Below, one piece after another: positions 17,728 through 48,144 of a DNA stretch of 64,000 nt. Below the pieces are notes generated by a model that saw only the letters and a list, made by a program, of their open reading frames with translations, was not told the origin of the DNA and did no database searches. Location of the stretch: NCBI GenBank assembly GCA_008632985.1, contig QPGO01000026.1, forward strand, positions 62,001 to 126,000, read 5' to 3'. A program made the translations under genes and the position numbers. Source of the DNA: Psammoneis japonica. Taxonomy: Eukaryota. Each line of letters starts with the position of its first letter. Within the stretch, counting starts at the first letter, position 1.

Positions 17728-18971
17728 CGACGAACAGGAGCAAAATTAAACTACGTCGCATTGGCGTGAGATTTCCAACACGTCGTTCAATCTTTCGAGA
17801 AACAGGCGCTTGTCTCAAAATGAAGCAGGTGAGGGAATGGAGATGTATCATTGAGTTGCAATTTATGAGCTAAGCACCGTCCTCTTTCTCGTAATGCACC
17901 TCATTGAAAATCTCTTGTGCTCAACTACGTCATTCTCGGGATGAGGGAGCCGATCCGAAGTACAGCAGGATCTGGAGACACGCATCATTGACAGTCCGCG
18001 CAATGTCTCGTATCTTGATACTGGTCATGAGATGACGACACCAAAGCACCGCTGCGTAGTTTAACCCGGCGGTGACAGAATCTGTCCCTACGGAATGCTG
18101 TTCTTTCTCAAACTATTGATGCTGCCATTGATTCGTTCCAACAACGTCCCTGCCGCATATCCAAGGATGGGTACACGTAGAATAGACGCCAGGTCCGAGT
18201 GGGCGTAGTAACTCGTTTCCTTTACCAACTCGCTCGTTGCGTCATATCTTCGTTCCTTGTCGGGAGTCTGATTGATAGCATACTGCGAAAACGCATCGCT
18301 TTTTCCGTCCCAATCACAAGTGCCATTGACATGGATACCGTAGCCAAACTCTTTCTTTTCTTGCTTTAGCTTTGCTCTTGCCACCTGAAACAGAGGAGGG
18401 TCAATCACATAGGAATCCACTCTACACTTTGTTCCCTCTACTGTCACTTCAGTAAAGGTGTGGTGCAAGGTTGAAGGAAAAGAAGAACCAAGTCCCAACA
18501 AGACGTGATTGGGAATGTGTACAGCAATCACTTGTGCATCGTCAAACCCAGCTTGACGCAAGAGCCGGACAAAGAGTTCTGTCTTTGGTGTGCAGTGCCC
18601 CATTTGACGCTCCAGGGTGTACTCCGCCGTGGCTAAATCGTGCTTGTGTTAAGTAATCACACGGTAGCCGCGCGAAATCACCGGAATCACACGGAAATCA
18701 CGTCACGAGCGCGCCAGCGCGAGTGAGTGATTTCGCGTGATTCCGTGAGGAATCAGAACGAGCACCGAGTTCAGCGCGGTTCCGTCCGGCCTTCGTACGG
18801 GACCTTTCGAAAACCACTTGCACAAAACATCACAAAAATCGCACACCATGACGAGTGCCGCCGACGCGTCGTCGTGTATCTCAACAACCGTTTAGTATTA
18901 TCCAATACCACTAATAGACTCGGTTACTCTTTCATCTCAGATCACTGGGGTAGCTTCAGTATTGTCACAAA

Positions 18972-20346
18972 ATGTCACAACCATTAAAAAAAAGGCGTCG
19001 GAAAGTGCATGGTAAATCTTCTCCGTCAAACAGGGTCACAGTCGATTGTGAGCTCGATACGCTTCATTCGACCATTAAGTCATGTACAGCTTGTGAGAAT
19101 CAGATCTATACATGTATGGAAAGCTTTATTGAGCTGGGTTGTGCTGGAAAATGTGCTCTTTGTGTCTCTTGCTACGCCCGCTCCGTCGCGTTGAGAGGTT
19201 GTGACGCGACGTTGTACTGCTCGGTATGCAGCAGTGAAACGACTGACTTTACTATGCATTCTGTTCATTTTGAGCAAGGACATGGTGGTATGAAACCTTT
19301 TCAACAATCCTGCACTGGTGCAATCACTCCTCCGAATGCCAAGATGGATCCGGTTCGTCATTTCATGAGCAACAAGGAAACACCGGACCAACTCTTCGGA
19401 GGCAACGTCCATGTTACGTCATCAAGGGTTCAAGATTACGCCTCATTGACATTTGCTGGATACAAAGAGGATTCGCGATTTCTGCTGTTACAGTGAAGCT
19501 CAGAAGAAAATGTGGATGCTGTCACTCTTCCGCAAAACTGTGAATGGCAAGAACCAGTGTGGAGACCGCTTTTTTGAGAACATTGTTGGTCATGCCAGAT
19601 TACATTCGGGCAAGCATGTGTACAGCAACGATGACGCTAAGCACTGCAAACGGATTCGCGAAGTCGCTATGGAATCTAACAAAAATCAAAGCCACAGGAA
19701 AATCAACAATGCTGCAGCAGCAGTCACTGGCCAAGAGGGTCCTCGTCAAATGAAAGTGAACAAGTGGTTCTGCGAGTCATTGCTGTGTCTACGAGATGTC
19801 AATTACTTTGGCAATGGTGCTCCGCGCGTCATCCCTGCCAAGCCATTTTCGAAACGTGGTCCGGTGTCAAGCCACCGTGAAGTTGAAGAACTGGACCTTG
19901 TTGGACCATCCGGGAGATCTGGTGATCCTCAGAGCTGCTTCATATTGTCTACCGGGGAAAAGCGATTCGTTGAATGCTTTGAAAAATTTATTGTAGATGG
20001 AGATCCATCTGATTGCTCTCGACCCGAGACGGGTGAAGAAGGAGTGGATCTTTCATTGATCCCACCAGAAGCGGACAAGAAGGACACCGCATTACAGGAC
20101 GAGCTGAAACGATGCTGTTCCAAAGACTACAGCTTTCTGATGACTGGGGGTGTATGCACTGTCCCAGAACTCGACAAGGAGCTTGCATGTGTGAAAGGTG
20201 AAATAGAGTCCGAAAGATGGAAAGCAATCGTGGCGGCGCACCCAAAACCGATCAAAGGGAGTTTGAACAAGGCATCAAAAGTTCACCGACTTATGCTAGG
20301 AAGACAATCAATGCGAACAATAGATCCGAATTGGCCAGAGTTATGA
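18972..20346 (+). CDS. Element gene 1: basic NLS plus Cys-rich RING-like zinc finger; joined across an intron or frameshift at ~19420-19495
   Basis: KKRRRK, CTAC...CAGKCALCVSC...CSVC. Continues into the 297-aa ORF. Candidate acceptor ctgttacag at ~19493. Confidence 0.6.
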
Positions 20347-21914
20347 AAGGAAGAGTACAAGGCAAATCGACAGTCTGAGAGGGTTACTGAAAATGCAGAC
20401 TTTGAAGCAAAACTGAAAGCCGAGATCGATCAAGATATCTTCTCGGTTAATCAAAATGTCCGTTCCCAGTTCATACGTAAGTATCCAATTGAATGCAAGC
20501 AGCGACATATTGATCCGTCTGCGGCTGTACTGCCTCCCCTCCATCTTGGGATGCTTCCTCCGCATACTCTGTACGATCGTCTGATGCATCTACTCGGTAT
20601 GGGTTGACGGGATTTACTCAATCCCAATCCCCTGGCTATCAATTTTTCTAAAGTAGCAGTATATTGATTCATTCTAGTAGTGTACTTTAGATATTGAAAC
20701 TGCTCATAATTCTTCGATGACTTCAGGGTACGCTCGAGGCTTTTTGGATGGTTTCCTACGACTCTTCTTGAAAGCATCAATGTATTTCTCAACGGCAGAT
20801 GAAACCAAACCATCCTTGCCAGCAACTAATGGGTAAAAGTGAAAAGCGTCATTGCTTCTTGTTTCACTCCTAGTGACAGCCTTGAACGCTTGCATTACAG
20901 GCTTTATATCGTCCCCTGAATGCGTGACCAACAGCAACTCCGGCTTTTTGGCAGGAAGGTCGATTGTATTTCGTTGCCCGCCATCCGTCTCGGAAGGTTC
21001 AATCCCGTTCAAAACCAAGCACACAACACGCACACACGGTTCATTATCAAGCCGATTTGGATAGTGTGTCGTATCAGCAGCAGTTCCCGCTTTCTTCAAC
21101 AGTGCGTGAATCGAATCAATCGCAGTTCTGTCCGCCTGTTGGCTGAGAGAAGCTGCATTCGTTCCCATCAGATGCAAAGTGTCTCGAGATTTTTTTATCT
21201 TTTCTGCATCTTCTACCAAAGCCAGACGTTCTTCTACTGGGGAAAAAAGTGATGTAGCTTTCAGATTGAAACTCGATCTACCGTCGTTGGCGGGGCGCTT
21301 GTTTGTTCCACAGACTCCGACGCTGGAGTTCTGCTTCGACGCTTTCTGCTCTTGCCTCTAAAAAAAACCTTTGACGATTCTGACAAACCGGCTGATGTCA
21401 GTCTTTTGTCAGATACACTGCTAGGTGGCTCTACCTGTTGTTCTCCGGCGGTACCATTGTCTGTAGCGACTGATGTTTGTTGCGCGACCGGTTCTGGCAC
21501 GGGTGAAACTGATCGCGGTAATTTTGCAGTTCCGATGGTTACTTGCGCATACTTTTCATGAATAGCAGCCTTTTGCTCATTCAATACGCGAATCCTTCGT
21601 TCATATATGTCTTTTTCCCATCGTGGGAACTTGCCCCAGCGGTTCTTCTCGATCTTCTGCTCAGCGGCATCCATTTTGACGAAATCTCGGACCTTCCGAA
21701 AAACGTTTTGCCCATTAGCATCATAACCGAGAATGTGACGTGGTATCTCGCATCCATTGTATTTCAAACCAAGTACTCGAACGATTGAAAGGTTGATTTT
21801 GGGATCAACAAGCATAATTTGCCTCTCCTGGGTCATGTTATACTTCGGAGCCGCATTTTGTGTGCTTCCATGAGTGTCGCTATTCAACCGCGGTGCAATC
21901 GATGAAACCGACAT
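20341..21914 (-). CDS. Element gene 2: hypothetical protein, multi-exon or frameshifted
   Basis: Stacked ORFs 21914-21261, 21219-20704 and 20825-20451 with protein-like composition. No recognised domain. Confidence 0.5.
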
Positions 21915-22277
21915 ATTTCAGCAAATCTAAAACATGAACATGTACTTGAATACTGTTAGATCGTGTGTGCAAGGTTTGGTAGTTGTTATCATAAAAGTTA
22001 TAGCGCTACACGACGACGCGTCGGCGGCACTCGTCATGGTGTGCGATTTTTGTGATGTTTTGTGCAAGTGGTTTTCGAAAGGTCCCGTACGAAGGCCGGA
22101 CGGAACCGCGCTGAGCGAGGTCGCTTCTTAGATGAGAGTGCAACACGAACCGAGGGGAGTTTGATTTCGAGGCGAGTGGAGACGCAGTCGACACGAGACG
22201 AGAAATCAAACGACCCGAGGTGAGTGTACGAGTGTGGGAGAGACGATTCCGTTGAGCGGCGAGTGTAGATTACGCGA

Positions 22278-22899: not shown

Positions 22900-23451
22900 G
22901 TGTAAAACCAAAGGGCAAGTCACGAACGCAATCATGAAGAGCCACCGCGACCTACCTGGCGTTTGTGACAATATTCATATTTTCATGGCATTGCATCAAC
23001 GTATTCATATTTGGATGTTTTGCAATAACGCCGAACTTCCAACTCTTCATTCGCCCAACAATCGCTACCATCAGATCTGAAGATACAACATATGATCCAA
23101 GATTCGAACCCCGTGTGCGATGCTCAGTCTCGAATCCCGCGGAAGCCGAGTCACGAATGCGATGTTTGTTCCCAGCTTCGCGCTTGTTTAACTTCGCGTT
23201 TCTTTTAGATGGCAGCTGCATCTGCTCATAAAAACTGCTCATAATCTTTCTAACGTGCTGATTATCACCTCTCAACTTTTGGTGCAATAAAGTTACTGAT
23301 TGATTGTTGTGTCGCAATCACAGCTTTCAATCACTGAAAGTGCGCACGAATCCCAGAATTCCGGCCACTTTCCCACACGCTTCCTCTGCGAAATCTACAA
23401 GTTAAGTCAATCGATCTTAAGCTCTCGATTCTACTTTACTCTGCTGCTGCT

Positions 23452-24969
23452 ATGGTCACGCAGACACGAAACGCGGCTGCTCCAGCTGCCTCTGCTGCAG
23501 CTCCTGCTGCAGCACCTGCTGCAGCTCCCACTGCTGCTGCTCCCGCAGCAGCACCTGTTGCTCCTCCAGCCGCTCCAGTTGCTCCTGCCCTCCCTCTAGT
23601 TGTTCCTCCAGTCATCCCTCCTGGTGTGCCTCCAGGAGGAGGTGGGGGAGGAGGTGGAGGAGGAGGCGGAGGTGGAATCCCACCAGGTGGAGTTCCGCCA
23701 GGTGGACCACCATTGGCACCTGTGCCACCACTGCCGATCTTCGCCTTGACCCCAGGTCAACACCGTCCCAACAATTTCATCGACTGCGGCACATCGCAAG
23801 GCCTCAAGCTTTGGAACGCCGCTGCTGCTCCGCTGCCGCACGAGTTCAACGGTGATTCAGAAGGTCTCAAACGGTTTTGTGAGACGCTCAGTCAAAGAGC
23901 TGCCGAAGCAGGATGGAAAACAGGGGCAGGAGACACACTTGCCATTCCCGACGCAAATGGCACTCCACGAGATCTCATCTCAGAGCATGGACTGCTCACC
24001 CTTCAGGATGTAAGAACCCATGCGAACACCTTCGCGAATCCACCTGCGCGACAGGCACAGAACAATGTGCAGATGGCCGAGGCCATCTCTCAATCCCTTA
24101 CGGAAGAAGCAAGAGACAAGATGCTGGCTGAGATAGATTCCCACACGATCAACGGGAATCAAATCGGCACACTCTTCTTCAAGCTGCTTGCCCAGAAGGC
24201 CATCGTTGACACCCGATCTGCCACCAACTGCTTCCGCGAGAACCTCTCAAGCCTGGACACGCACATGGCGGCTGTCAACTCGGACATCGAAGAGTTTGAC
24301 AAGTACGCCAAACTCAACGTCGATGGACTCCTGGCCAGAGGAGAGCAGTGCGACGACCTTGTCATGAATTTGTTCAAAGGATGCGCCGCTGCTGCAGACG
24401 AGGTCTTCGTCAAGCATGTCATGTCACACAAGGACAGATGCGACGATGGTGAGGATTTCACACTGACTCAAATCATGACGTTGGCATTGAACAAGTGTGC
24501 TAACCTCAAACGCGAGAAGAGATGGGGAGCACTGTCACCGGCTGAAGAGCAAATCGTCGCGCTTGCAGCCAAGGCAGACTCTGTCAAGGATCAGAACCTT
24601 CAGCTGTCCAAAGCATTGAAGGCCAAGGCTGGTTCTACCAAAGAAAGAAGCACACGGTCAAGGAGGCCCAAGACTGCTCCACGTCAGAAACAGAAGGCGG
24701 ACGAGGCCTGGAAGAAAGTCCCGCCTAAGGAGGATGCTCCTAAGAAGACAGTGAACGGTCATCAGCACTGTCACAAATGCGTCAACAATCGCAACTGTCA
24801 CTGGTGTCCATGTCACACCGCTTGGGTCATTCACTTGCCTGACGATCCGGGCAGCCAAGGCTGTAGACTCCGCAAGCAACAGTCTGCTCCATCCATGGAC
24901 ACATCGGACAAGAAAGTCTCCTTCGCAAGTGCTGTCTCTGCCATCCTAAATGAAGTGGATCAAGAGTGA
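23452..24969 (+). pseudogene. gag: Copia gag with Ala/Pro/Gly-rich N-terminus and zinc-knuckle-like HWCPCH..W
   Basis: LFFKLL..KAIVDTR, NLFKGC, CHWCPCHTAWVIH. Only one Tyr in 505 aa. Confidence 0.85.
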
Positions 24970-25380
24970 CTGCTCCACAGGTTCACTCTGACACTGCTGC
25001 TGTCTTTACAGATGGCCATCACTGTGTCAGTGCTCCTGATGGCGGTCGCTGGCGTCATGAAATGTGCAGCACCGATCTGGATCATACTGCCATTCATGAT
25101 GCCATCCCTTCCTTCAGAAAAGTGTAAGCGCCTGTCACATGCCGTGATGACGCCAGGTGAGTGGGTTATCTCACACATCCTGGCTGAACTGGGCACAAGA
25201 CGAGTTAAGACTCACCAGCGACGGCCAACGACAAGGTGCTGCGCACGGTGTCACACGTCGACGAGGCCAGGTCACCGCTCCAGAGTGGCCACCAAGAAGG
25301 CTCACCATGTCATCACGTGATGCAAGACGGTTAGGGCGTACAATTCAACCACTCCATGCCGTCCCAATCAAACGGAACCC

Positions 25381-28300
25381 ACTTACGATTCGGATTCATT
25401 CGCAATCGGTGTCGACTCGCATTCTTCCTGCACCATGTCTAACGACGAGGCACACTTTGTTGGTCCGATCAGAAAAACAAATGAGGTGGCACTTGGTGTC
25501 AAGGGCTGCTTGCGTGCCAAGGGAGAAGGAACAGTGCAGTGGGCAATTGAGGACGACATGGGACGAGTGCATAGCATCAAAATTCGAGATGCGCTGCTCG
25601 CACCGGACTTACCTCATTGTCTTCTCTGCCCGCAGCAATGGAGTCAACAAGCTAATGACCATGCGCCAGAGCCTCACGGAACTGTGTCCTGGACCAGGGA
25701 CGACGGACTGTCACTGATGTGGGACCAGCGCAAGTGTCATCGCCTGATTCCATGGTCCGCCAACTCTAATGTCGCCAAGATGCGCTCCGCACCCGGTTCC
25801 AACAAATGCCGGACCTTTGCAGCCGCTGTCGAAGAACAAACCGATGTCGAAACTGTCGAGCACGTGGCCTGTCAAGCTCACATCATACCACCAGACGACG
25901 AGAGCATTGCGAATGATGACGAGGCTGCAATTGACACAGACGTCTTCAGAAGTCCATCCGAGACACGTCCTTCTGAGACGCAAGACGCACGCAACACTGC
26001 TGATGAGGGTGCTCCTGTCTCATTTGAGCCAACAGACAGAGCAAGTTGTTCAGACTCAGACGAGGAAAACCCAAGGGATTTCACAACACCGGAGGCACAG
26101 CAGGACTCACCGGAACCCATCAACATTGTGCCAAATGATGACGCCCTTGCTGCCACTGATGACCAGGGTGAACTGTTGCGTTGGCATTGCCGCCTGGGCC
26201 ACATGTCATTCAAAATGACAAAGCCATTGGCCGCCCCAGGCATTCCACCGAAACGCCTTACAAAGGCACACAACCCAAAATGTGCCGGCTGCCTGTGTGG
26301 TGCCATGACAAAATGACCGTGGCACTCCAAGTCCAAGCGGAACCGACGAATCCACTTGGCAACTTCGCCTGGAGAGGCCGCATCCGTCGACCAGCTTGAG
26401 AGTCCTGCTCCTGGACTCATCCCACAGCTTAAAGGGAGGCCTACGAAACAAAGGTGTCAAGCAGCGACAATTTTTGTTGATCATTTCAGCAGATTGGGGT
26501 GCACAAATTTGCAGAAAGGACTTGCCTCAGCCGAGACGCTCGACGCCAAGCACGCTTTTGAGGCATTCGCATGCCGGATGCACGTCCGCATTCGACACTG
26601 CCACACCGACAATGGAAGATTTGCTGACAATGCTTTCATGCAAGACGTCAAGAAGCAACAGCAAACAATGTCTCATTGTGGGGTCAACGCCCACTTCCAA
26701 AACGGCATTGCGGAGAAGAGAACAAGGGACCTCCAAGAGCAATCTCGGAAGCAACTCCTGCATGCAAAGGTGAGATGGCCAACGGCTGTTGAGTTAAATT
26801 TGTGGCCAAGCGCTCTCAGGAATTCAAATGAGATCAAGAATCACTTGCCGAATCACGAAGACGGTTCCTCTCCGTTGGAGCGTTTCTCGTCTGTCAAGGT
26901 CCAACCCAATCTCAAGCAACATCATGCCTTCGGCTGTCCAGTCTACGCCTTGCACACAATCGGTTGCAGGGAGGAGGCAGGCCACCTGAGTGGGACCCAA
27001 GAGCAAGGTTAGGAATCAATTTGGGGCCATCAACAAGACACGCAGGTTCAGTTGCCTTGGTCCTCAACTTACAGACTGGACTCGCATCGCCACAGTTCCA
27101 CGTGCAATTCGATGATTTCTTTGAGACTGTTCGTCCTTCTGCTGGGAATCCTCCTACATTCTCACAATGGCAAGGCATTGCAGGTTTCAGGCAACTCAAG
27201 ACAAGGAGTGCTTTCAACATCTTTGGGAGATCAAATGACGCACTGGTTGAGGGATCAATCCCTGCTGTTTCGGAGCCACCTGAGCTGAATCCGGATGTCC
27301 CGTCTCAGCTGCTGCATCCTGCTGACACAACAACTGCTGATGACTCATTTGACAACACCCAACCGGATGATGAAGTCCCACACACGCCTCCAGATGATTC
27401 TGACGCACCATCTGAGCCACAGCGCACCATGGGTCAACCCAGTGCCAGCAGGTCCGGCCGACAACGATGCCCAACCGAAAGGATGCGCGAGAGCCAATTG
27501 CAACGGGCTCAAGGCATAGTCTCCTACAATGCAGAGGCAGAGGCACATTGTGACGCAATGCACGAGGATGATTACAAACTGCAGGATGACATGGACTCAC
27601 CCATCTCTTTTCTGGCGAGCTCGGACCCCGACACCATGCACTTTGACCAGGCTGTGCGTGAACCTGACAGAGACGAGTTTGTCAAAGCCTGTGTTAAAGA
27701 GGTCAATGATCACATTGAAAGAAAGCATTGGATGCTTATTCCAAGAGAGGACGCACCTGATGATGTTGATGTTCTCCCTTCAGTGTGGTCCATGAAGCGC
27801 AAAAGAGACATCAAGACTCAAGCCGTCTACAAATGGAAGTCCCGACTCAATGTGCACGGTGGAAAGCAAGAGCATGCTGTCAACTGCTTCCAGACCTGCT
27901 CTGCCGTGGTCTTCTGGTTCACCATCCGGCTCCCACTGATCACAGCCATTCTCAAGAAGTGGCACACACGCCAAGTTGACTTCGTTCTGGCGCATCCGCA
28001 TGCCGATGTTGAACATGACATGTGCATGGAGTTGCCTGCAGGAATTGAAACAAAATGTGGCAATGGCAAGACTCATGTTCTGAAGTTGCTCAAGAACTCA
28101 CATGGACAGAAGCAAGCAGGGAGAGCATGGCAAGAACACTTACGTGATGGATTGTTAAGGATTGGTTTTGTTCAATCGGCGGTTGATGAGTGCCTGTGTT
28201 TTCGCGGCAATGTCATTTTCATTCATTGTGTCGATGACGGCATCTTTGCATCCCCTGACAAGTCTGCCATTGACAAGGCGATGCAGGGTGTCAGAGATGA

Positions 28301-29231
28301 GAATTTTGACATTGATGATCAAGGCACTCTGGACGACTATCTCGGTGTCAATGTCGAGACGCTGCCTGACGGCAGAATGAAACTTGCCCAACCTCACCTT
28401 GTCAATCAGACACTGGAGATGGCCAACATTCCCAAGAGACCACCAGACAAGTCTGCTCCTGCTCCTTCTTTCAAGATCCTCCACAGGCACATGAGTGAGC
28501 CTGCTTTCCAAGGGAGCTTTCATTACCGATCCATCATCGGCAAGCTCAATTTTCTGGAGAAAAGCACTCGACCGGATGTCGCCTACGCGGTGCACCAAGT
28601 CGCACGTTTTTCCTCCGATCCCAAGATTTCTCACGGTGAAGCTGTACTATGGCTCTGTAAGTACCTAAGGTCAACCAGAACTGAAGGTATTATACTACAG
28701 CCCTCAACGGACAAGTCCCTTGAAGTTCACGCTAACGCGGACTTTGTGGGCAATTGGAACAAGCTAACAGCACCCGATGACGTTGGCACTTCCAAATCTC
28801 GAACTGGGTTTGTCATCACCTACGCAGGATGTCCGATTGTATGGACGTCCAAGCTACAGACTCAGATCGCGCTCAGCACTACTGAAGCTGAATTTATCGC
28901 TCTTTCGGAAAGTCTTCGAAGCGCCATCCCAATTATGAACCTCATTCAAGAGTTTATGGGTCATGGTCATAATGTCCCTTCCGAGACACCAGTCGTACAC
29001 TGTAAGGCTTTTGAAGACAATTCTGGAGCACTGGAGATCGCGAGATTGCCTAAGATGCGTCCTCGGACAAAACACTTCAACCTCACTCTCCACCACTTTA
29101 AAGACCATGTTCGCAAAGGTCTCATATCAATCCCACCAATTGATACGGCAGATCAGATTGCAGACATTTTCACCAAACCTCTACCACAGAACCTCTTCGT
29201 TAAACACAGGAAAGCGCTCCTTAAGTGGTAA
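25381..29231 (+). pseudogene. pol: Copia pol (protease, integrase, RT, RNase H) with a TGA at 26314 and a frameshift at ~26960
   Basis: DSDSFAIGVDS, WHCRLGH, DNGRF..QNGIAEK, HGQKQAGRAW, CVDDGI (from YVDD), STTEAEF, QIADIFTK. Confidence 0.95.
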
Positions 29232-30974
29232 GACGTTTTCGAGTCATCATTCCACCCGACGTTATTGAAGGGAGTGTGACAATATTCATATTTTCATGGC
29301 ATTGCATCAACGTATTCATATTTGGATGTTTTGCAATAACGCCGAACTTCCAACTCTTCATTCGCCCAACAATCGCTACCATCAGATCTGAAGATACAAC
29401 ATATGATCCAAGATTCAAACCCCGTGTGCGATGCTCAGTCTCGAATCCCGCGGAAGCCGAGTCACGAATGCGATGTTTGTTCCCAGCTTCGCGCTTGTTT
29501 AACTTCGCGTTTCTTTTAGATGGCAGCTGCATCTGCTCATAAAAACTGCTCATAATCTTTCTAACGTGCTGATTATCACCTCTCAACTTTTGGTACAATA
29601 AAGTTACTGATTGATTGTTGTGTCGCAATCACAGCTTTTAATCACTGAAAGTGCAGACGAATCCCAGAATTCCGGCTGCTTTCCCACAGCGTTTTGTCAT
29701 GCCTGATGGCGACGACGACGACAAGGACTCCACCACGGCAGCGACTGAAATGGCTTTCATCATGTCAAACTTTCTGGTCAATGCACGACCAAGGCAGGCA
29801 GGCGCCTTTTTTGTGAGAGCAGAATCACAACCCACATGATGCAAAAAGGATGCGAGTGGGAGCTTCCAAGAACACCAACGTGTCACTGCTCCATCCATGG
29901 CGCGTTGTCGGTTGTTGCTTGTGAAAAAAGTGCGGGATGCCACGTCATTCGTCACACCCAACATGGACAGACGGACGGCAGCGAACTGGGTCGGTCATGC
30001 CAGCCATTCTCGAGTTTCGTCAATTGACCAGTTGCCGATTCAGAGCAAGTTGCAGGTAAGACTTTTTGCAATGACAGAGGTTTTGCCTTTCAAATGCCAA
30101 GTGGTTGTGCTCTGGATCCAATGGCCAGGGAACGAGGAGGAAATGTGCTGGTGGGTCGGCGCGATTTGCTGAAGAAGAAGGTGCGCCAGAGTGACGTGGG
30201 CAAAGAAGGAGGGGGGCAGCAGAGGGAGGTGACAGGCATGGTCATGATGCAGTGGATGTTGGCTGGTTGATTGTGGAAATCTTTTGAAACAAAAAATGAG
30301 AAAGAGGGGCAATGGGTGAGCAGCAGCTGCTGAAATGTGGCAGCTCAAAGTCAAAAGGACAAAACACAAGGGAGCACCAGGGTGAGGACAAAAATGCATT
30401 GCACAGAAGACACAGCAGAAGGCACCTGCAGCAAACACAGCTTTTGCATCAGAAAAAACCAGTGCTGTGGCTGGCACAAACTGCAATTTTTGGAAAGTTT
30501 TGAGTGCCACAAGAGTTGTGCCGTGTCAAAAGGTGAAGTCAATTCACAAAGATTGTTGCATTGAAAGCAGTGTGAAATGAAGAGCAAGTGAGGGGCTCAC
30601 TGGGGTGAAAGAGAAGTCCCAGCTCTGCAACTTCCTTGACAGGATGAGCTGGTGAACACATGTTTTGCACCAGTGGACTCAATTTTGGCATCCAAGCAGC
30701 TGAGAAAAGCAATTTCAAGGTGCAACTTTGAGATGAAATGGTTGACTTTTTCAGGATTTTTCTTCACCCAGTTTGTGCTTTGACATGGGTGCCATGAACA
30801 ACAGGCAGGTGCCAACAAGCCACACACACTGGCTTGCTCTTGAAAGAGCTGCAGCCACAACCCAATGGAGCCACACAACAGCTCCCAGAAGCAGACCTCT
30901 TGCTTGAAACATGACCACTGCCAAGATGTGTTTGCACGCAAAGAACAAGAAAGCTCATTTCCACAGCTGCTTGC

Positions 30975-31287
30975 AAAGCTGGGTTCATGATGAGTGACAA
31001 AGGGGGCATGCTTCACACCAGCATGAGCAAAAAGTTGTTGGAGACAACTTGGGCTGGGATTTGTGTGCACATTGTTGAAAAAATGGAGCAGGAGCACCAA
31101 ATCAAAAGAGAGCAAGAAGGGTGATGCAACAAAGCTGGGTTCATGATGAGCAACAAAGGAGGCATGCTTCACACCAGCATGAGCAAAAAGTTGTTGGAGA
31201 CAACTTGGGCTGGGATTTGTGTGCACATTGTTGAAAAAATGGAGCAGGAGCACCAAATCAAAAGAGAGCAAGAAGGGTGATGCAAAG
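30975..31287 (+). repeat. Tandem duplication with a ~156-bp unit
   Basis: aaagctgggttcatgatgag...caagaagggtgatgcaa occurs twice in a row. Confidence 0.9.
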
Positions 31288-34200
31288 GCATGTGTGCTCC
31301 ACTGGGGGTGTGCAAAGCAGGACAGCTTGCTCCAGACCACACTGAGAGTTCACATTCAAGCCCATGGTTGTGTCACCTGCAAGGAGTGTGTGACACAAAG
31401 TGTCTTCCCATGCAGGGCAGTGCTGCTGCAGAAGCATCATCTGCAACATTTTGCACACAAGCTGGCCAATTTCAAGACCCATGAGTGTGTTGCCAGGGCA
31501 GATGACTGCCCCCTTAGCTTCCACCTGTGATGGAAGGTGGAGACACACCAGAGTCACAGCCCAATGATGAGCTGCACAACTTGCTTGAGTGTGGTGTATC
31601 AAGCACATGGCAGAAGCACATGGCACCACAGGACTTTGACCCATTGGCATGCACTGCAGCCAAAATGTGCTCCATCAGCCCTGGCTGGGACTCTGTGTGA
31701 CATTTGCGTGCAGAGTTCTGTGCATGAGCTTCACAGCAAAATCACCAGGTGGTGAACATGCCAGTTGTTGCCAACAGAAAAAGAGGCAGTTTTGTGATTG
31801 CATCTCTTCTTTCATTCTTGGGGTGCATTGTTTCCAGTTTGCCAGGGTGCACTCTTTGCAGACATCAAAGAATGGGCCCAGCTAATTTTTGCTTTCACAA
31901 ATGGGCACAATGAAAATCCTTTGGCTTCACAAAGCAGGGAGTGTGGGGAACAATTTTGTGGAATGATGCATGTGTAGAGATGCACAGTCCAGAGCTGGAG
32001 TTTGTCCCAAATTTGTTGCACTCTGCAAACAAGTCAAGCATGTCAAGGAAGGATGCAGAAGGCATTCTGGTCCAAAGCACCAAGGCTCCACACAAGCAGG
32101 GCTGCAGCCCAGACTCAATGAATCAGCACGGTGGTTGTGTCAAAGTGGGAGAGTTAATTGTGAGGCTGCAATTGTCCAAAAAGTGCAGTGCACCTGCTAA
32201 TTTTGTTCTGTTTTCAACTTTTTCAACAAGTGATGTTATCATGGTGAATCAATCACTGTGAATCTCTCTTGAAGGTTCAAGGCAACAGCTTTGCATTTTT
32301 GCCTCTTTTGTGTGCATCAGCTTCAACACAGCAGATGGGTGTCTGCATGTCATTTTGGTTGTTGCCTGCACTTGGAAACACTTCTTCCAGACACACACAT
32401 GGATGATGACAAATTTCCTTTTGAATCCTGTGTGCATTTGAATGCATCTTTGCACTGACCCAAACTTCAATGGACACTTGTGACTCCAATCTTTGGGAAT
32501 CCAGCAGTTTGAAAAGAATGATCTGGGGAATGTGTCTGGACAGCTGCTGTTCAAATGAATTCTGTCCATCTGTGCATTTGGGGCATCTGTGAGTGCAGCA
32601 GTTTCAAAGGATAAAAAAGATGCAAGGGCAGAGTCAAGCATGTGGCTCAAGGAAGTTAGACAAGGCTGACCAAGTCATGTGTGCACATCATTCCTCAAAA
32701 TAGATGAGAATTGGAGTGGCTTGCCAGGCTGTTGCTGATCCTTTCAACAATGCAAATGCCAGTGCCATCTGCCAGTCTTTTCCATCACATGGAAATGGCT
32801 TTTGTTGCTCATTTGAAGCTGGCCAGCCAGTTGCAAGATGAAAAAATGGATGTTGCATTGATGCCACAATTCAATGCTCATTTTTGCTCTCTGTCCCAAT
32901 CCAATTGCACTGCACTTTTGTTTTGGCATCTCACCCATTTTGTTTGACACACTTGTCTTTGTCACTTAGAGAGGACATTGAGCAATGTGTCACCCCCAAG
33001 GATGAACAATGGCTGACCATTTCATTTTGACATTCTTCATCGTGTTGGAAAGGGGCTGTGAGTGTGGCATGCCATGCACTCCTTTTTGGTCCAAACCAAG
33101 CAAGACACAATTGATGCTGTCACCAATGATGACAGTTTCAATGTGCAATGGGAGGGCATTGACATGTCCATGACCTTGCCAAGTGCCAGTTGGCAGTGCT
33201 CTCCCTCATTCAGGGGCCAAAAACTGGGGCAACTCTTGGTGACATGGCAAGCATGCAATTGGAGCATGTGAACAAGGAGGCTGAAATGTTGTGCGGACAA
33301 CTCTCAAGGCTGTGCCAAAGAAAGGCATGTTTGCATTGGTTCAAAGTGACATTGATGCATCACACATCTGCAGCATCTGTGTGTGACAAGCAAACCAGCA
33401 ATTTCTGCTCTCAATCTCTGTCTTTCCTGTCAAGGTGGTGTCTTGGTTTTTGTTTCTGGTGGCCTTTGGATCTGCAGAGAAGGACAGGAACAACTTGCAC
33501 CTCATCAAGCCAGGGTTGTCATCAGCTCACAATTTGTGGTGATGATGTGTCAGCGAGTTGCACAAACTGAAGACACACCTCACAACATGCCAGCACCCCA
33601 AGATGCACCTCTGCTCATTTTGTGTTTCCTCTGCAAGACAAACAAGAAACCCTGAGAACTTTTGTTGTTTTCAGCAAAGTCATTGATCTGTCATGGTCAA
33701 GCAGATTGTGGATAAAAACAAGCAACAACATTGATGGGAGTCAGTGCATCCATGGCAAGTGGAGCCAGACCAACACCTCCATTGTCATCTGATGTCAACT
33801 GTCTGACAGTGTGCTTTTGTGCAAACACTTCTCATGTTGCTCTCACTGCTTTCTTCTGATTCTTCTTGGTCATTCAATCCATGTTGAGTGGATGGAACAG
33901 GCTTGGATGGGGCACCACTGCTTGCATTGTGCATTGTCCATGGCGGCTTCAATGAAGCCAACCCATTTTGCACTTTCTGCTGACCACAATGCAGGGTGTC
34001 ACATGGCAACTCAACCAAAGCTTTGCCCAGACACGTGCAGCAGAAGAGATGATGACTGTGCAGGAGGTGACACCATTGTTCTTGTTTTTGATCTTTGTGA
34101 CATGAACTTTGGTTCCATCGACTGGGTCTTTCAGGTGAGAGCCATGTTTGGGATGCTTTTTCAGCTCACCACTCATTTTTTGTTGCAACAGCTTCATTGA

Positions 34201-35908
34201 CACCCCAGAGCTATGAACCCATTGACCAATTAGAGGCACTGACCCAATGCTCAACAAGAGACAATGTGCTGTGTGGTTTCATTATGCCATTGAATGCTTC
34301 TTGTGTCATGCACTGCTTTGGCACCATTTTAAAGAAAAAACTGCTGCACCTGATGCACAAGAAAAGCAGATTGGCTGCATGCAGGTCAATCACAAATGCC
34401 AATTGGGTGCAACAGATGTTGTCAGCAGCAAAAAGTGTTGGTGCTGGCATGCCATCATTGCACTGGCCAGCATTTTTTCCTGCGGTGTGGTGTGATGCAA
34501 CCTGGTCTCTGGCATTCCCACAATTCTTCTGAGTGCCCCAATCTCACTGATTGACAGACTGTTCCAGCACAAACCCCATTTTTTGTGCAAGATTGTTCAC
34601 ACAGCAGCTGTCCAGACATGTTCATCATAGAACCCCGCAAACATGTGGGGACCCACAACCTGGAAATGTGCAGAGTTGTGCGTGCATGCATTGGAGCTGT
34701 TTATGCAGGTTTTGCACCAGAGTGTGTTGTGAACTGCTGGCGGGCATTTTTTTTAAATTTTGTCATGGCAACAGAGACTCCAAACTCTCTGGTGCTTTGT
34801 TGGCCCCAGGCAGAAACAGCACCATGCCCTGTGCAATGTTCAGTCAATGAAACCAAAAAAAGTGCAAGAAGTGTGCCATGATTTTGAGGCCATTGCAATT
34901 GACACCACACCCGAGTTCACATTGAAAACAATGCTCAAGGGTGGCATCAAAATGTTCATCAAAAAAGGCTTGGTTGTGTGGGGAGGTTTCAGAGGTGCTG
35001 TGCAATGGTGCAGGTCAACATGGGCTCACAATCTGACAGAGACTCCAATGTGACCTCTTCCACTGACATGCAGAAACTGTGCCAGTTTTGTGCAGGCATG
35101 CTGAGTGTTTCAGCACCACATGCAAAAATGAGCATGGACCTCTGCAGGAGGGTCCCCACACATTTGCAGGGTGACACAATGAACAAGTCATGATTGCAAT
35201 GTCATCTGGTTGCAGAACATGACTGCAACTCAGACTCATTGATTCATTTGGCCATTCACTGAAATCGCTGTTTGTGGATTGCAATTGACTTTTGCCACAA
35301 TTTCTGGAACAGCAGCAACAACAACAACAACAACAACAACAACAACCACTGTTTTGCCTCTTTGTTGTTGCTGCCATCCACCCTTTGAGGGGACTTTTGA
35401 TTGTGTGTCAACCTCAGCACAGTCTTTCAACTCTGATTGTTGAGACCATCAATTCATGCATTGGCACTAAGCTCTCAGTCAAGTTGTTGCCACAGACATT
35501 TCCTCTGATGGAAACACAGCTGATTTCAAATCACCCATCCCATTTTCACAACCAAGAGAACCGTGGCTCCTCCTGCCACACCACCACCTCCTCCAAGAAC
35601 CCTGGCAATGGGCACTGCACCAAATGTCAGGTTGAAGGAGGAGGAATTCATGAAGATTTTCTCCAGCATCAGAACCCAGGGACAATCACCTCCAACACCA
35701 CCCAAATGAGGCAGAATCCCTTGAACTCATGGTGCACATGTTGGAAGATCTCTCCTTGATGATGACTGGAAGCAGACAGATTCACATGCACATCGTTTTG
35801 CATCACAGCATTGACACCCCAAGGCTCTCAATTCAACCAAGTGCTCTCTCCAAGATCAACAAGCTTCTGCAATGACCTCCAAACAACTTCAACAGCAGAC
35901 TCAAGATT

Positions 35909-36650
35909 TTGAATGGTCCCATCAACAAATTAGACAAGGACCACTTTGTCAAGAGCATCCAAGACCCAGTGGAGGCTCACAGACATGAGATGTTCTGTCA
36001 TGCAAAGAAATCAGACAGAAAGGTCATCCATGTCTTTGATCATCTACACAAGTTTTTGGCAACAGATCTCCCTGCTGAGAGCGACACTTGCAAGTTGGAC
36101 ATTGATGACTCAGCCTGCAACAAGACAGAGCTCCATGACATTGGCCTTTCTCAGCTTCCAGTTTTACATGGAGTCACAAATGCCTTTGGCAAGAAAATGA
36201 AGACCAAGTTCAACCACTTGAAGGATTTCAAGAACTGTCCTGAATCCGTTCTGTTCATGATGGCACTCAACACATGCAACACCAGTGCTCCAGCTGACAT
36301 TGAGACTGCCAAGAAGGAGCTGGAGGATCTTGCTTTGGCCACCTGCCTGGGAGAAGACTGTGCCAACTTCACTGCTGAAGGTCTGTGGATCATCAAGGTC
36401 CTGCAGATGGACTGCACACTCCCAGTCAATGCTGGATCCAAGCTCTTGCACAAGGCATCCAATGCATCTTTGGAACACTTCAATCGCCTTGTGCACAACA
36501 AGATTGATGATGTCAAGAAGATGGAGTGCAAGTGTGGGCTCAAGGACCCCATGGAAATCAAGTCCAATGCTGCCTGTGCCAACCTGGGCCAACTTGGCAT
36601 CATCACATGGATCCAAAAGCAGCACTCCCTCAGAGCAACCTGTCATCATC
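35909..36650 (+). pseudogene. Decayed diatom copia gag-like fragment
   Basis: VLFMMALNTCN..DIETAKKELEDL.LATCLGEDC..F...LPVNAGSKLL resembles CoDi gag (YPGE->CLGE). No Tyr. Confidence 0.6.
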
Positions 36651-37852
36651 TGACAACCCAACCAACATGTTGTTGGGGATGTGGTCTTGAAGGCTGCACC
36701 AAAAATCCCAAACACCCCAAGAAGTCATGTGCAACTGCATGGCAAACTGCCTGCATTGGGGAGACCACTGCCAAGGACCCAAGTTGCTTGAAGTTTCAGC
36801 GGGGGAGTCTGACAGGACTGTTGTTGATGGTGTTGAAGAAGGCCCATCACTCCATGTTGATGAAGGAATGTCCCATGGAAGAGCACTTGGTGCACCCACT
36901 GGCACACCACTGGGAACCACTGATGGTGAGAGGGAAGGTCTCTCAGATGGTGAAACAGACGGTGCATCACTGGGGCTGGCAGCACTCAGCATCAAAAAGA
37001 CAATGTCTCTGACGGACTGGTGCTGGGGACACACGTTGGGCCTTCACTTGGCATTTAAATGGCAGAATCACTGGGGTTGAAACTCAGCATCAAAGATGGC
37101 ATCTCTGATGGATGAGTGCTGGGGACACCCATTGGAGATCTTCACTTGGCATCAAAGAGGGAGAATCAGCTGGCATGACACTTGGCTCTGTTGTTGGTGA
37201 CACCAGTTGGATCTTCACTTGGCATTGCAGAGGGAGAATCTGATGGCATTGCACTTGGCACATCTGTTGGGGCTTCACTGGGTGGGACTGAAAGTTTTTG
37301 TGATGGCACATCACTGGGCACCAATGATGGCGCACCCAATGGCACAATGCTTGGGCTGGCACACTTGTTGGAGCATCACTGGGAGCATCACTGGGAACTG
37401 ATGAAGGACTTTCTGATGGTGCAGCACCGGGTGCAAAGGATGGCGCAGCAGACGGCACAACACTCAGCATGTTTGCTGGAGATTTGCTGGGTGACAAACA
37501 GGGCTCATCACTGGGGCTGCCACTTGGCACCAATGATGGTGTCTCAGATGGTGCAACACTTGGCACATTCATTGGTGCCTCACTGGGTGATGATGATGGT
37601 TCATCGCTTGGGCTGCCACTTGGCATTGATGATGGCATCTCAGATGGCTCAAGGCTTGGTGCTTGCATTTGGCATCGCAGAGGGTGAATCAGATGGCACA
37701 AGACTTGGCACATCTGTTGGAGCTTTGCTGGGAACCAATGAAGGAGTTTCTGATGGCACAATGCCAGGTGTCAAGGATGGTGCAGTGGACGGCACAACAC
37801 TTGACATGTCTGTTGGAGATTTGCTGCTGGGCAACAAACAAGTGCAACACAC
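36630..37852 (-). pseudogene. Fragmented mucin-like (PSxx)n repeat gene remnant
   Basis: PSDAPSVSPSERPSLSPS and PSEMPSSMPSGSPSDEPS broken across several frames. Confidence 0.65.
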
Positions 37853-39360: not shown

Positions 39361-39361
39361 T

Positions 39362-40918
39362 GTTCACACTCTCCCCAACCATCCCATCCTGTCTATGTTG
39401 CTGCAGACGAAGCATGCGCGACATGGCACAAGGCTCGGTTTGGCATCGATTTGGACAGGAGCATGGCACTTCCGATGCAACATGCACTTCAAGGACACCC
39501 AGAAGCCGGCGTGCTCTGGGAGACGCACATCAACGGCATTTTGTCCGATGTGAACTTACTTTTTCGCAACACTGCTCATGACAAATGCATCTGTTCTGCT
39601 GCTTGTGAAGGACACAAGATCTTGCTCCTCCGTCAGGTTGATGATTTCTCCATTGCATGTCCTGAAGAGTCCCTTGCGATCAAGACCTGCGACAAGATTG
39701 GCAAAGCTCTCCAATTGGAATCGGAGACTTCTCCACCTTTCAAGTGTCTTGGCGTGATTGAAGAATTCAATGGTGTGGATGTTCTTCAATGTGATGATTC
39801 CATTGGTGTTGCTGTCCACAGTTGTGTTGATCGGGTTTGCACCTTGCATGGATGGTCGACACCGACAGACGAGGAACTCAAAGAGATGAACACAAGGCCA
39901 CACCAATCCCGGTTGATTCCATTTGTGACCTGCACACTGCCATTGGTCCAGCTGAAGGAACCCCAGAGCATGCGGAGTTGCAACAAGCTGCTGGCTTTGG
40001 GTGCCGCACTCTACTTGGTGAATTGTTGCATGCGTGCATTGTCTGTCGATTGGATGTTGGGTGTGCTGTCACTGCTCTCTCCAAGTTCTCTACCTGTCCT
40101 GCTGTGGTTCACTGTGACGCGCTCAAAGGAGTCTGCAAGTGCCTTCAACGCACCAAGCATTGGGAATTGAACTGCAAGAAGCCCACCCAAGACTCAAGAC
40201 TGCCTGCCTGCCCCTTTGAACGCCTCTCTCCGGACCCAACCCTACCACCATTCCCTTTCCCTGAATGTGATCATCAACTCGTTGCTTTCTTGGATGCTGC
40301 GCATGGCAATGACCTCCGCAACCGTTGCTCTACGACCGGCTGTGCTTGCATGTTTGCTGGCGCTGCCATGTCTTTTTGATGCAAGACCCAATTGGTGCTG
40401 CTGCGAGTTCTACGGAAGCTGAATTCTGTGCGGCTGGCACTGCTGCCAAGCATGTCCTTTGCCTTTGTCACATCCTGTGTGACCTGGGCTTCCCTCAGAC
40501 GAAGCCAACCCCGTTGTGCATTGACAACAAATTGGTATCAAGATCATCAATCATTCGATCCCAACCGAGCACTCCCGTCACATTGAGACTCAGTTTTTTG
40601 CGATCCAAGAATGGAAGGAAGCGGGCAAGATTGTCACAAGACATGTCCCTGGCATTGTCAACCCCAGCAATGACCTCACCAAGGCCCTTGGGTGGGTGCC
40701 ACACGCTCGCCATGCTCAACGCATGATGGGACACTGCTGTTGACATTTTTTCTGCGGTGGCCTCCCTGCTGCGCATTGCCCCCTTGTTTGATTGTGCATT
40801 GGGCATGGACACTTGTCGTGTCCTGTGTCTAGTCTCTCTGTTTTTCCTCACATCATCCCTGTTCTTTGGTTTGATGTGCACCATTCTCTGTGTTGAGATG
40901 TTGCAAATCAGGGGAGGG
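39362..40918 (+). mobile_element. Partial duplicate of the copia RT/RNase H 3' region (copy of ~46390-47948)
   Basis: Near-identical sequence including the PPT ggggaggg, running directly into the LTR at 40919. Confidence 0.92.
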
Positions 40919-46900: not shown

Positions 46901-48144
46901 GGAACTCAAAGAGATGAACACAAGGCCACACCAATCCCGGTTGATTCCATTTGTGACCTGCACACTGCCATTGGTCCAGCTGAAGGAACCCTGGAGCATG
47001 CGGAGTTGCAACAGGCTGCTGGCTTTGGGTGCCGCACTCCACTTGGTGAATTGTTGCATGCGTGCATTGTCTGTCGATTGGATGTTGGGTGTGCTGTCAC
47101 TGCTCTCTCCAAGTTCTCTACCTGTCCTGCTGTGGTTCACTGTGACGCGCTCAAAGGAGTCTGCAAGTGCCTTCGACGCACCAAGCATTGGGAATTGAAC
47201 TGCAAGAAGCCCACCCAAGACTCAAGACTGCCTGCCTGCCCCTTTGAACACCTCTCTCCGGACCCAACCCTACCACCATTCCCTTTCCCTGAATGTGATC
47301 ATCAACTCGTTGCTTTCTTGGATGCTGCGCATGGCAATGACCTCCGCAACCGTTGCTCTACGACCGGCTGTGCTTGCATGTTTGCTGGCGCTGCCATGTC
47401 TTTTCGATGCAAGACCCAATCGGTGACTGCTGCGAGTTCTACGGAAGCTGAATTCTGTGCGGCTGGCACTGCTGCCAAGCATGTCCTTTGCCTTTGTCAC
47501 ATCCTGTGTGACCTGGGCTTCCCTCAGACGAAGCCAACCCCGTTGTGCATTGACAACGAATCGGCGATCAAGATCATCAATCATTCGATCCCAACCAAGC
47601 ACTCCCGTCACATTGAGATTCAGTTTTTTGCGATCCAAGAATGGAAGGAAGCGGGCAAGATTGTCACAAGACATGTCCCTGGCATTGTCAACCCCAGCGA
47701 TGACCTCACCAAGGCCCTTGGGTGGGTGCCACACGCTCGCCACGCTCAACGCATGATGGGACACTGCTGTTGACATTTTTTCTGCGGTGGCCTCCCTGCT
47801 GCGCATTGCCCCCTTGTTTGATTGCGCATTGGGCATGGACACTTGTCGTGTCCTGTGTCTAGTCTCTCTGTTTTTCCTCACATCATCCCTGTTCTTTGGT
47901 TTGATCTGCACCATTCTCTGTGTTGAGATGTTGCAAATCAGGGGAGGGTGTCAGCCCATCTGTCCACCTGTCATATGATGGACAGACTGGATGCAGATGA
48001 TGGCTGGACCATTTAGATAGACGAGCAGATCGCTCTGAGATCTGCTTCTCACTTTCTCATCTGCCAGCACTCGTGTCATCACAGTCCTGGCACCCCAGGG
48101 AGTCTTTCACACCTCTGTCATCTCTTGCCTTCGGCATTCTGTCA
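40919..48144 (+). mobile_element. Second Ty1/copia element (different family), inactivated
   Basis: 196-bp LTRs at 40919-41114 and 47949-48144 (TG...CA). gag 41293-43350, protease QLDAGA, WHQRLGH, integrase DQGGE..GPVER, RT ALQGHPEAG/QVDDF, RNase H STEAEF/NPSDDLTK. Confidence 0.95.

Follow-up and report, generated by a model that had tools for sequence, protein, structure and literature searches.

In the literature searched, a fast TpA mutation process like the one considered here has a single described case, that of the unrelated alga Bigelowiella natans. For this alga Mettrop et al. (bioRxiv 10.64898/2026.01.13.699255) report hypermutation that is restricted to TpA and affects integrated DNA of NCLDVs and virophages. 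According to that preprint, mutation-accumulation lines gave a direct measurement of the rate, taken on viral inserts present as single copies; it was raised about 1000-fold in mitotic lines, only some of which were active. Its authors also note coding sequences that are depleted of TpA and contain transposon domains, and they put forward an ADAT-type deaminase (ADAT2/3) as a candidate. The terms "CpG", "diatom", "retrotransposon" and "context" are absent from the main text of the preprint, where the order of TA before CpG loss, a TAY motif and 5' polarity are unreported.

The diatom copies analyzed here resemble that system, as far as the preprint describes it, in that TpA becomes TpG or CpA on both strands, in foreign DNA only and with a GC bias. 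Unlike the rhizarian case, which was measured, the diatom case is deduced by comparing the copies of an LTR retrotransposon, and it reaches 80–95% loss. The literature searched, which mostly lay outside the subscription journals, contained no account of TpA being erased from diatom transposons.

RIP of ascomycetes produces C:G>T:A transitions at CpA/TpG, making TpA, in strand-coordinated clusters within a round; it is homology-triggered, premeiotic and RID-dependent. The diatom copia shares with it post-insertion, dinucleotide-specific transitions in repeats, on both strands, with host genes spared and frames broken. Unlike RIP, the change runs from TA to TG/CA, so that TpA is removed; furthermore strand-coordinated runs are absent, many near-identical copies show no erasure, and the loss has a polarity from one end of the element to the other. 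There is also a likeness to the methyl-CpG decay of silenced transposons (C>T at CpG, both strands, transposon DNA only), which accounts only for the slower of the two losses described below. Transposon methylation in diatoms is ascribed to DNMT5 (PMC9998398).

The copia element and its TA-erased tract

The window is a 64,000-nucleotide stretch of contig QPGO01000026.1 of the diatom Psammoneis japonica. Its element at 22964–29688 (forward strand) is a Ty1/copia LTR retrotransposon, with a TG...CA LTR pair, a 5-bp target-site duplication (TSD) and an integrase before RVT_2. The TSD had been described as intact, and GCGTT indeed flanks both sides, at 22959–22963 and 29689–29693. Both LTRs (22964–23377 and 29275–29688; 414 bp) retain most of their TA, with observed/expected ratios (o/e) of 0.49 and 0.53. 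A gag-like frame of 543 amino acids, stop to stop (23338–24969), has no Pfam match and is so named because of its position. The broken pol (25321–29231, three frames) shows the copia domain order of Pol_BBD (weak, below cut-off), gag_pre-integrase (25321–26313) and RVT_2 (within 26832–29228), which places the integrase region upstream of the reverse transcriptase. The stop at 26314 was correctly read as CGA changed to TGA: the window copy and its allele have TGA, as does one further copy, and 17 of the 20 copies examined have CGA.

Gag and most of pol form a TA-erased tract (23460–28500) with 42 TA (o/e 0.154) and 242 CG (o/e 0.67), TG and CA products being interleaved along it. Three TA-rich sister copies have 211–216 TA (0.70–0.71) and 291–293 CG (0.89–0.90) in the same interval. 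The sequence-only reading of an interior nearly free of TA and rich in CG is thus borne out for this tract; it does not extend to the 3' end of pol (28501–29274; 3 of 31 TA sites lost, o/e 0.61) or to the LTRs, which retain TA. Nor is CG intact, as 62 of 353 shared CG sites differ in the window copy, part of this being sublineage divergence; 14 of 121 sites still CG in its nearest relative, L051, have been lost. The direction is that of TA loss, since of the 12 Tyr codons that a TA-rich copy has in the reverse transcriptase region, 10 are Cys or His codons in the window. The spared segment 28501–29274 carries the copy's own lineage variants and is therefore not a patch from a TA-rich copy. The window copy is at a middle stage, with tract TA mostly gone, CG down 12–18% and both ends spared. 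It had been called young, which is not supported: its CpG loss exceeds that of 10 of the 11 other scored TSD-matched copies.

Two end-state domains, at 1–4790 (TA 0.067, CG 0.174) and 30000–37800 (TA 0.047, CG 0.092), lack both dinucleotides as claimed, and the second adjoins the spared 3' end of the copia. A second copia family (39361–48144, forward strand) is at an intermediate stage, with TA 0.15 and CG 0.67 in 41114–46388; all 30 of its 30 pieces have TA o/e of 0.03–0.17 and CG of 0.29–0.68. The repeat 39361–41114/46389–48144 was considered as an LTR pair and rejected, as it includes the end of pol. It is a tandem duplication made after TA erasure, and its two members differ at 16 CG versus 6 TA sites.

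LTR divergence and independence of the copies

The 414-bp LTRs had been put at about six differences; this is the number of events, while the bases number seven. The three named differences are all present (CG/CA at 23105–6/29416–7, TG/TA at 23283–4/29594–5, CA/TA at 23328/29639), and to these are added a CA/TG doublet at 23366–7/29677–8, a single TA site reading CA in one LTR and TG in its partner, and a 2-base change at 23344–5. Polarized against other LTRs of the family, the 5' LTR after insertion underwent TA losses at 23283–4, 23328–9 and 23366–7 plus the change at 23344–5, and the 3' LTR one TA loss (29677–8) and one CpG loss (29416–7). Because five of the six events are of TA or CG type, LTR divergence is not an independent clock, and LTR-pair dating was rejected as such. 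The argument for a fast TA clock from low LTR divergence is thereby left unsupported, the more so as the window LTRs lie outside the erased tract. Family-wide, TA-type changes make up 131 of 199 LTR-pair differences. Since two thirds of these differences are TA events, both LTR-divergence dating and copy-identity estimates are biased in such genomes, and TA and CG ratios combined may be a better gauge of the stage of element decay.

Identical LTRs around an erased interior could also come by inheritance, and a test of copy independence was therefore needed. The share of sites with the same product in two copies has a median of 0.59 (217 pairs), with near-identity only in two same-locus pairs, and the window copy matches its nearest relative at 32 of 49 sites. 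That TA loss arises after insertion, independently in each copy, is supported. Descent of the interior from an erased parent, or RNA/cDNA editing at retrotransposition, would make LTR identity uninformative. Inheritance is logically possible for a copy with spared LTRs, the more so as an erased parent may lie outside the 40 of 56 candidate copies scored; erased states shared by duplication do occur in the window (39361/46389), and the pair L045/L049 has 86 of 109 products in common. Distinct insertions, however, do not share their products, LTR pairs differ at TA sites, and both strands are equally affected, rather than carrying one-strand products. Retroviral cDNA editing is single-stranded, in contrast to the changes seen here, and the time that minus-strand DNA spends single-stranded predicts a gradient opposite to the 5'-high one observed. 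We regard this explanation as largely refuted and very improbable.

Rates, polarity and tempo of the two losses

In lightly decayed copies, TA loss far faster per site than CpG loss is supported. In copy L035, for instance, 155 of 263 TA sites are gone, and between the two LTRs only 1 of 347 bases is different. Inside their tracts, ten TSD-matched copies, L050 and the window copy being left out of this pool, have lost 905 of 1124 TA versus 76 of 1691 CG sites; outside, the same copies have lost 56 of 1052 TA versus 22 of 1346 CG. The in-tract TA:CG hazard ratio is about 36 when these ten copies are pooled, and 20–59 in eight copies taken singly. It drops to 8.1 for the window copy and 7.1 for L050, and among the four copies with the most decay it is 3.1–4.7. 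The TA tracts show a CpG loss 2.8 times that of the sequence outside them (P=6e-6 for enrichment). Over 12 copies TA and CpG loss are correlated (rho 0.87), so that half of what was to refute the two-clock proposal, a joint scaling with age, was found; the relation is saturating rather than proportional, and thus two rates remain. The proposal of two clocks converging on TG/CA is supported by these family rates and not by the LTR argument. Over 18 copies TA loss shows no coupling to transversions (rho −0.04) or to G:C>A:T changes of other kinds (rho 0.06).

The set of 12 omits the TSD-mismatched copies L034, L037, L041 and L049, the allele L031 and three reference copies, and L039 (partly N) is left out of every per-copy count. 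TSDs are mismatched in 4 of 19 copies and one copy is a demonstrated chimera, which means that assembly has produced some of the sharp tract edges; the LTR-pair, transversion-correlation, neighboring-run and motif counts took in three or four such copies.

TA hypermutation is confined to mobile DNA, host DNA being spared. Between haplotypes, 7105 bp of host DNA holding 288 TA and 402 CG differ at 0 TA and 1 CG, while the copia, over 3223 bp, has 7 TA and 10 CG differences and none of any other type; a TIR-bounded element likewise has allele differences of TA/CG type (5 of 5). We think it exceedingly improbable that the pattern is an artefact of assembly or base composition. Haplotigs do contain chimeric copies and 1-bp errors, yet such errors do not yield TpA-restricted, copy-specific transitions with a context motif, and short-read contigs span both insertion junctions of the window locus and, at one TA site, agree with the window in showing the derived base. 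The haplotig allele has a 2.4-kb TA-rich patch (window about 26640–29030), which may reflect gene conversion or an assembly chimera.

One might suppose that a single machine has both outputs, the CpG loss of the tracts being enzymatic as well (methyltransferase- or deaminase-driven). The co-localization of the two losses, the ten CG differences of the copia haplotypes with none outside TA/CG, and the many C5-methylase domains of the genome (27 matches) are in keeping with this. The TA:CG ratio, however, shifts about tenfold along the copy series, and the duplicated pair kept losing CG after its TA was exhausted, which separates the outputs in time; CG loss also shows little flanking preference (0.020–0.028). 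We consider a single machine improbable.

TA loss peaks over the gag half of the element, and in 12 of 12 TSD-matched copies it is greater in reference columns 700–2800 (window 23742–25842) than at the 3' end of pol. This polarity was examined in one family, the second having no TA-rich copy among its 30 pieces. Spread from adjacent erased domains was rejected as the main driver of interior erasure (5' flank against 5' interior, rho −0.14), and the erased 3' neighbor of the window copia, which adjoins a spared element end, counts against spreading. Neighbor erasure may act on the 5' LTR (rho −0.58, P=0.008; 20 rows including chimeras).

The TA process had been thought possibly burst-like. In its strict form this would be a true RIP-like burst of one or a few rounds, for example in sexual reproduction, striking both strands of a tract at once. 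Near-saturated tracts do adjoin untouched DNA in lightly diverged copies, the window copy retains more TA than a constant rate predicts, and B. natans, in the lines the preprint reports, was active in only 11 of 15 (10.64898/2026.01.13.699255). Against a single step, strand-coordinated runs are absent (683 of 1310 neighboring pairs alike in product, against nulls of 678 and 672), double hits from TA to CG are few (7 of 1578), several copies have graded tract edges and low, scattered TA loss, and CpG loss, the slow clock, is already raised inside the tracts. A burst in this sense appears unlikely. What stands of the claim, on moderate evidence, is early activity followed by slowing. The window copy retains 18 of 91 TA sites versus 5.3 expected at a CpG hazard of 0.12; this depends on the hazard assumed, the young-copy value of 0.049 giving 16.4, and in L050 slowing is visible only with its gross CpG hazard. 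An allele-based clock (6 TA losses seen versus 25.5 expected) is weak, because the alleles disagree (window 5 TA/2 CG versus haplotig 2 TA/8 CG, P=0.06) and the haplotig carries many 1-bp errors; a second same-locus pair, L037/L056, has too few differences for such a clock. A front-loaded TA-erasing activity is moderately supported.

Context, candidate enzymes and a possible mechanism

A:T>G:C transitions occur almost only at TpA, on both strands: across 14 copies, non-TA A>G changes number only 115 in 2749 sites, versus about 80% TA loss inside tracts. The raw TG excess (903:680) was examined as strand bias and rejected, as it is gone once context is modelled; with the +1 base included, the strand rate ratio is 0.9–1.0. 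Relative rates by +1 base at TA are C 1.2, T 1, G 0.5 and A 0.3. Among 95 asymmetric sites 69 favor the TAY strand, 15 the opposite strand and 11 are ties, and non-TA A>G also prefers a 3' pyrimidine (86 of 1297 versus 29 of 1452). The context model gave no preference for G at +2 of TA sites; the natural TadA target has G at +2, which weighs against the chemistry favored below. ADAR prefers a 3' G, whereas TAG is disfavored in the diatom copia. CG>TG/CA changes likewise fall on both strands within transposon DNA. A>G with a 5' T, weak on other 5' bases, is a likeness to TadA-derived adenine base editors, which are described as preferring YA (10.1101/2024.11.19.623682). The fall-off from the 5' LTR recalls AID targeting downstream of a promoter; TadA editors, ADAR, AID and APOBEC are, unlike the present case, engineered or animal systems.

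We favor, with some reservation, a scheme in which copia insertion and silencing are followed by two mutational processes, fast at TpA and slow at CpG, that share one chromosomal tract. The fast one consists of A:T>G:C transitions restricted to TpA, on both strands and in each copy separately, with T-A-C/T preferred on the adenine strand. It would begin over the 5' third and spread 3' to varying lengths, with the last part of pol and the 3' LTR usually the final portions to be reached, and would take 80–90% of TA steps early and then slow. The slow one is C>T at CpG in the same tracts; it would initially run some 35 times slower per site and persist after TA is exhausted, and its cause is most likely methylcytosine deamination. 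The polarity hints at recruitment from the promoter side of the 5' LTR, which would be transcription- or RNA-linked.

As to the chemistry of the fast process, we lean slightly towards conversion of DNA adenine to hypoxanthine by an enzyme of the TadA/ADAT fold, fixed over many replication cycles. Sequence reads adenine and thymine lesions alike: a TAY motif becomes RTA when read on the complementary strand, and it fits both. A thymine lesion in R-T-A, be it a modified T or an error-prone polymerase placing G opposite T, would thus yield T>C with the same timing, and the search for a nuclear DNA adenosine deaminase identified none. For polymerase eta the WA signature also affects AA, which the scarcity of non-TA A>G speaks against. 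Overall a thymine lesion seems rather unlikely.

The genome has TadA/ADAT-fold and A_deamin genes, which tRNA editing would call for in any case; the most clear-cut TadA-like gene encodes a protein with a hydrophobic N-terminus that is probably organellar. No deaminase fused to a chromatin-reader domain was present in the frames scanned. Two weak C5-methylase matches were checked, and their scanned frames held no SNF2 domain as in DNMT5; Tet_JBP gave no match, as did the positive control of that search.

More speculatively, diatoms may possess a DNA adenine deaminase that is dedicated to transposons, prefers T-A-pyrimidine and is loaded onto newly silenced retrotransposons downstream of the promoter in the 5' LTR. 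It would work its way along the element much as somatic hypermutation does, disable it within a short evolutionary interval and then stop, methyl-CpG decay finishing the process. Such a GC-biased counterpart of RIP would be shared with Rhizaria and possibly ancestral in SAR.

The copy series yields an order and a rate (TA, then CpG), a TAY motif for candidate enzymes to match and a rule of position, by which the gag half goes first and the 3' end last, and these make the mechanism testable. Within the literature searched, one preprint is the only source to date that proposes a natural defence by adenine editing of DNA. If confirmed, the present case would mean that one of the major algal lineages inactivates its retrotransposons through A>G mutation targeted to their DNA.

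The copia element and its relatives

The element at 22964–29688 is a Ty1/copia retrotransposon which ends in TG...CA, is flanked by the target-site duplication (TSD) GCGTT and carries RVT_2 downstream of gag_pre-integrase. Its LTRs, whose length of 414 bp each marks its sublineage (~348 bp in most other copies), differ at 7 bases. Polarised against the family's other LTRs, the 5' LTR has three TA losses and the 3' LTR one TA and one CpG loss; the remaining event is one 2-base change. At one TA site the two LTRs carry different products, CA and TG. The sequence-only reading described the interior as almost stripped of TA, and this holds for 23460–28500, where there are 42 TA and 242 CG against 211–216 TA and 291–293 CG in three TA-rich copies; it overlooked the stretch 28501–29274, which is spared (3/31 TA sites lost, versus 91/125 and 68/79 upstream). 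Of 12 Tyr codons that a TA-rich copy has in the RT region, 10 are Cys or His in this element, which fixes the direction of change. It is on direction of change that membership in RIP fails.

With pol as query 51 matches were obtained, and 40 of 56 candidates were scored. The sample comprised 20 near-full-length copies plus 7 partial or more decayed ones; L039 was left out because part of its sequence is N. A natural copy, L044, and not a consensus sequence, set the coordinates; a site was scored if three TA-rich copies agreed on it (263 TA, 364 CG). TSDs are mismatched in four copies (L034, L037, L041 and L049), which are either ectopic recombinants or mis-assemblies. Since L037 has its 5' flank and 5' products (the TG or CA left at a lost TA) in common with L056 and its 3' flank in common with L047, some copies must be chimeras, and these were removed for a repeat of the main counts. 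The window insertion has an allele in a haplotig (L031, G000:C334), with the same flanks and 100/100 products in common; over window positions ~26640–29030 this allele carries a 2.4-kb patch matching TA-rich sister copies, which represents either gene conversion resetting erased DNA or an assembly chimera.

Relative rates of TA and CG loss

The TA erasure observed here is real. That TA is lost before CpG, as had been proposed, was borne out by a pooled TA:CG hazard ratio of 36 within erased tracts of 10 TSD-matched, lightly decayed copies. Inside tracts these had lost 905/1124 TA and 76/1691 CG, and outside them 56/1052 TA and 22/1346 CG. The ratio was 20–59 in the eight copies with tracts, 17 in L056, 13 in L055, 10.5 in L051 (the nearest relative), 8.1 in the window copy, 7.1 in L050 and 3.1–4.7 in four copies with CG loss of 45–57%, the counted loss in more distant copies containing some lineage divergence. 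This drop indicates that TA loss saturates near 85–95% while CG loss climbs on. The two losses do rise together (rho 0.87 for 12 copies, 0.91 for 19), and scaling together had been put forward as evidence against separate clocks, but their rates differ and TA saturates. As CG loss is also enriched within TA tracts (P=6e-6), the processes have a domain in common, but not a rate. For 18 copies, chimeras included, TA loss was unrelated to transversions (rho -0.04) and to other G:C>A:T changes (0.06).

The argument that the copy is young by its LTR clock did not survive. Of the LTR-pair differences across copies, 131 are TA-type, 29 CG-type and 39 of another kind; what separates the LTRs is thus mostly the work of the TA process. 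L035, another copy, has lost TA at 155/263 sites and its LTR pair differs at 1 of 347 bases.

Host DNA and other elements of the window

In this assembly (91.4 Mb in 597 contigs), gene-bearing DNA of the window has TA o/e of 0.49–0.60 and CG o/e of 0.84–1.09 and alternates with domains in which TA, CG or both are scarce; two older domains lack both, as claimed. The host gene at 48899–50359 has named matches including Cylindrotheca, Fistulifera, Amphora and Nitzschia (~50–55% identity), which points to a diatom host. The haplotypes differ by 2 substitutions, 0 at TA, over 7105 bp of host DNA, and by 7 TA and 10 CG differences and no other kind over the 5' 3223 bp of the copia. The host block at 4799–6013, outside the 7105-bp count, is ordinarily heterozygous: it contains a glutaredoxin-DEP-DUF547 gene and shows 25 haplotype differences in 1.2 kb, and near-identical host DNA lies further along. 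An element at 18764–22121, bounded by 125-bp inverted repeats (94%), is still TA-rich; its 5/5 haplotype differences are TA- or CG-type, possibly the onset of erasure. Degenerate tandem repeats (~60–140 bp) lie at 37039–37826 inside an erased domain, and each strand there has long open frames.

All 30 of 30 pieces of a second copia family are at an intermediate decay stage, none being TA-rich. Its tandem duplicates at 39361–41114 and 46389–48144, each comprising the 3' end of pol and what is probably a ~195-bp LTR, have their erased state in common and differ at 16 CG, 6 TA, 6 TG/CA doublet and 13 other sites, nearly all TA and doublet differences falling in the final 200 bp, where this probable LTR lies. 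The duplication is later than the TA erasure.

Timing, signature and a possible mechanism

Distinct insertions have a median of 0.59 of their products in common (217 pairs), and the window copy and L051 have 32/49; such low sharing implies that erasure is post-insertion and copy-specific. Any single copy may descend from an unsampled erased parent. Five pairs exceed 0.75: two same-locus, two with small overlaps (20/26, 18/22) and L045/L049, two copies with 86/109 TA products in common, more than other distinct insertions. TA loss is higher at window-equivalent 23742–25842 than at 28644–29275 in 12/12 TSD-matched copies, and in 10 of these at most 2 of the 28 TA sites of the latter (27 in one copy) are lost. 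Despite identical sequence, 5' LTRs have lost 73/168 TA sites and 3' LTRs 26/156. No dependence of interior TA loss on the state of the flanks was found.

Of the suggested burst, front-loaded TA loss stands with moderate confidence. Of its 91 tract TA sites the window copy kept 18; a CpG hazard of 0.12 predicts 5.3, one of 0.08 predicts 8.7 and the young-copy hazard (0.049) predicts 16.4; L050 departs from the constant-rate expectation at its gross hazard only. The allele clock (6 TA losses versus 25.5 expected) points in the same direction, but cannot be relied on: the two alleles give conflicting counts and the haplotig sequence is prone to errors. The absence of strand runs lends no support to a single-cycle burst, unless both-strand lesions are fixed together: neighbouring TA losses show no strand coordination (683/1310 same product; nulls 678 and 672). 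Mettrop et al. (10.64898/2026.01.13.699255) describe the same TpA spectrum for viral DNA inserted in B. natans, a process that the family's erasure resembles. From the counts in that paper we computed a rate of 1.1e-5 or more per TpA and generation, at which, by rough analogy, 80% TA loss might take ~1.5e5 generations. Literature searches found no report of TpA erasure in diatom transposons.

After modelling context (13 copies, three chimeras included) the strand rate ratio is 0.9–1.0, so both strands are equally affected; in the same copies the base 3' of the adenine is the dominant context effect (relative rates C 1.2, T 1, G 0.5, A 0.3). Rare non-TA A>G changes (14 copies) show a pyrimidine preference too. 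As several observations of the same site do not count as independent, a per-site count was added, in which the TAY strand was favoured at 69 sites and the opposite strand at 15, with 11 ties. Double hits were 7/1578.

With spectrum, motif, strand symmetry, copy independence, polarity and rate order established, we suggest that a TadA/ADAT-fold enzyme probably deaminates adenine in DNA. The process needs a 5' T and acts weakly in other contexts, much like the YA preference that 10.1101/2024.11.19.623682 reports for TadA-derived editors. The main rival, less likely, is a lesion on the thymine side of the step rather than on adenine. TadA/ADAT-fold and A_deamin genes are present in the genome, none tied to TA erasure, nor are any of its many C5-methylase domains tied to the process. 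At the deaminase-candidate locus L064:1327–2055 (+), P0121 is TadA-like, bacterial-type and N-terminally hydrophobic, probably targeted to an organelle. At another such locus, L066:313–1785 (-), one 491-aa frame combines a cytidine-deaminase-fold domain with DIOX_N and 2OG-Fe(II) oxygenase domains. Three C5-DNA-methylase loci (L110–L112; G000:C301, C297) lie within TA-erased DNA (TA o/e 0.07–0.10), and mobile elements probably carry them. According to PMC9998398, diatom transposable elements are methylated and repressed by DNMT5. The putative adenine deaminase would load from the 5' promoter side of the element, and the slow clock would be the decay of methylcytosine.
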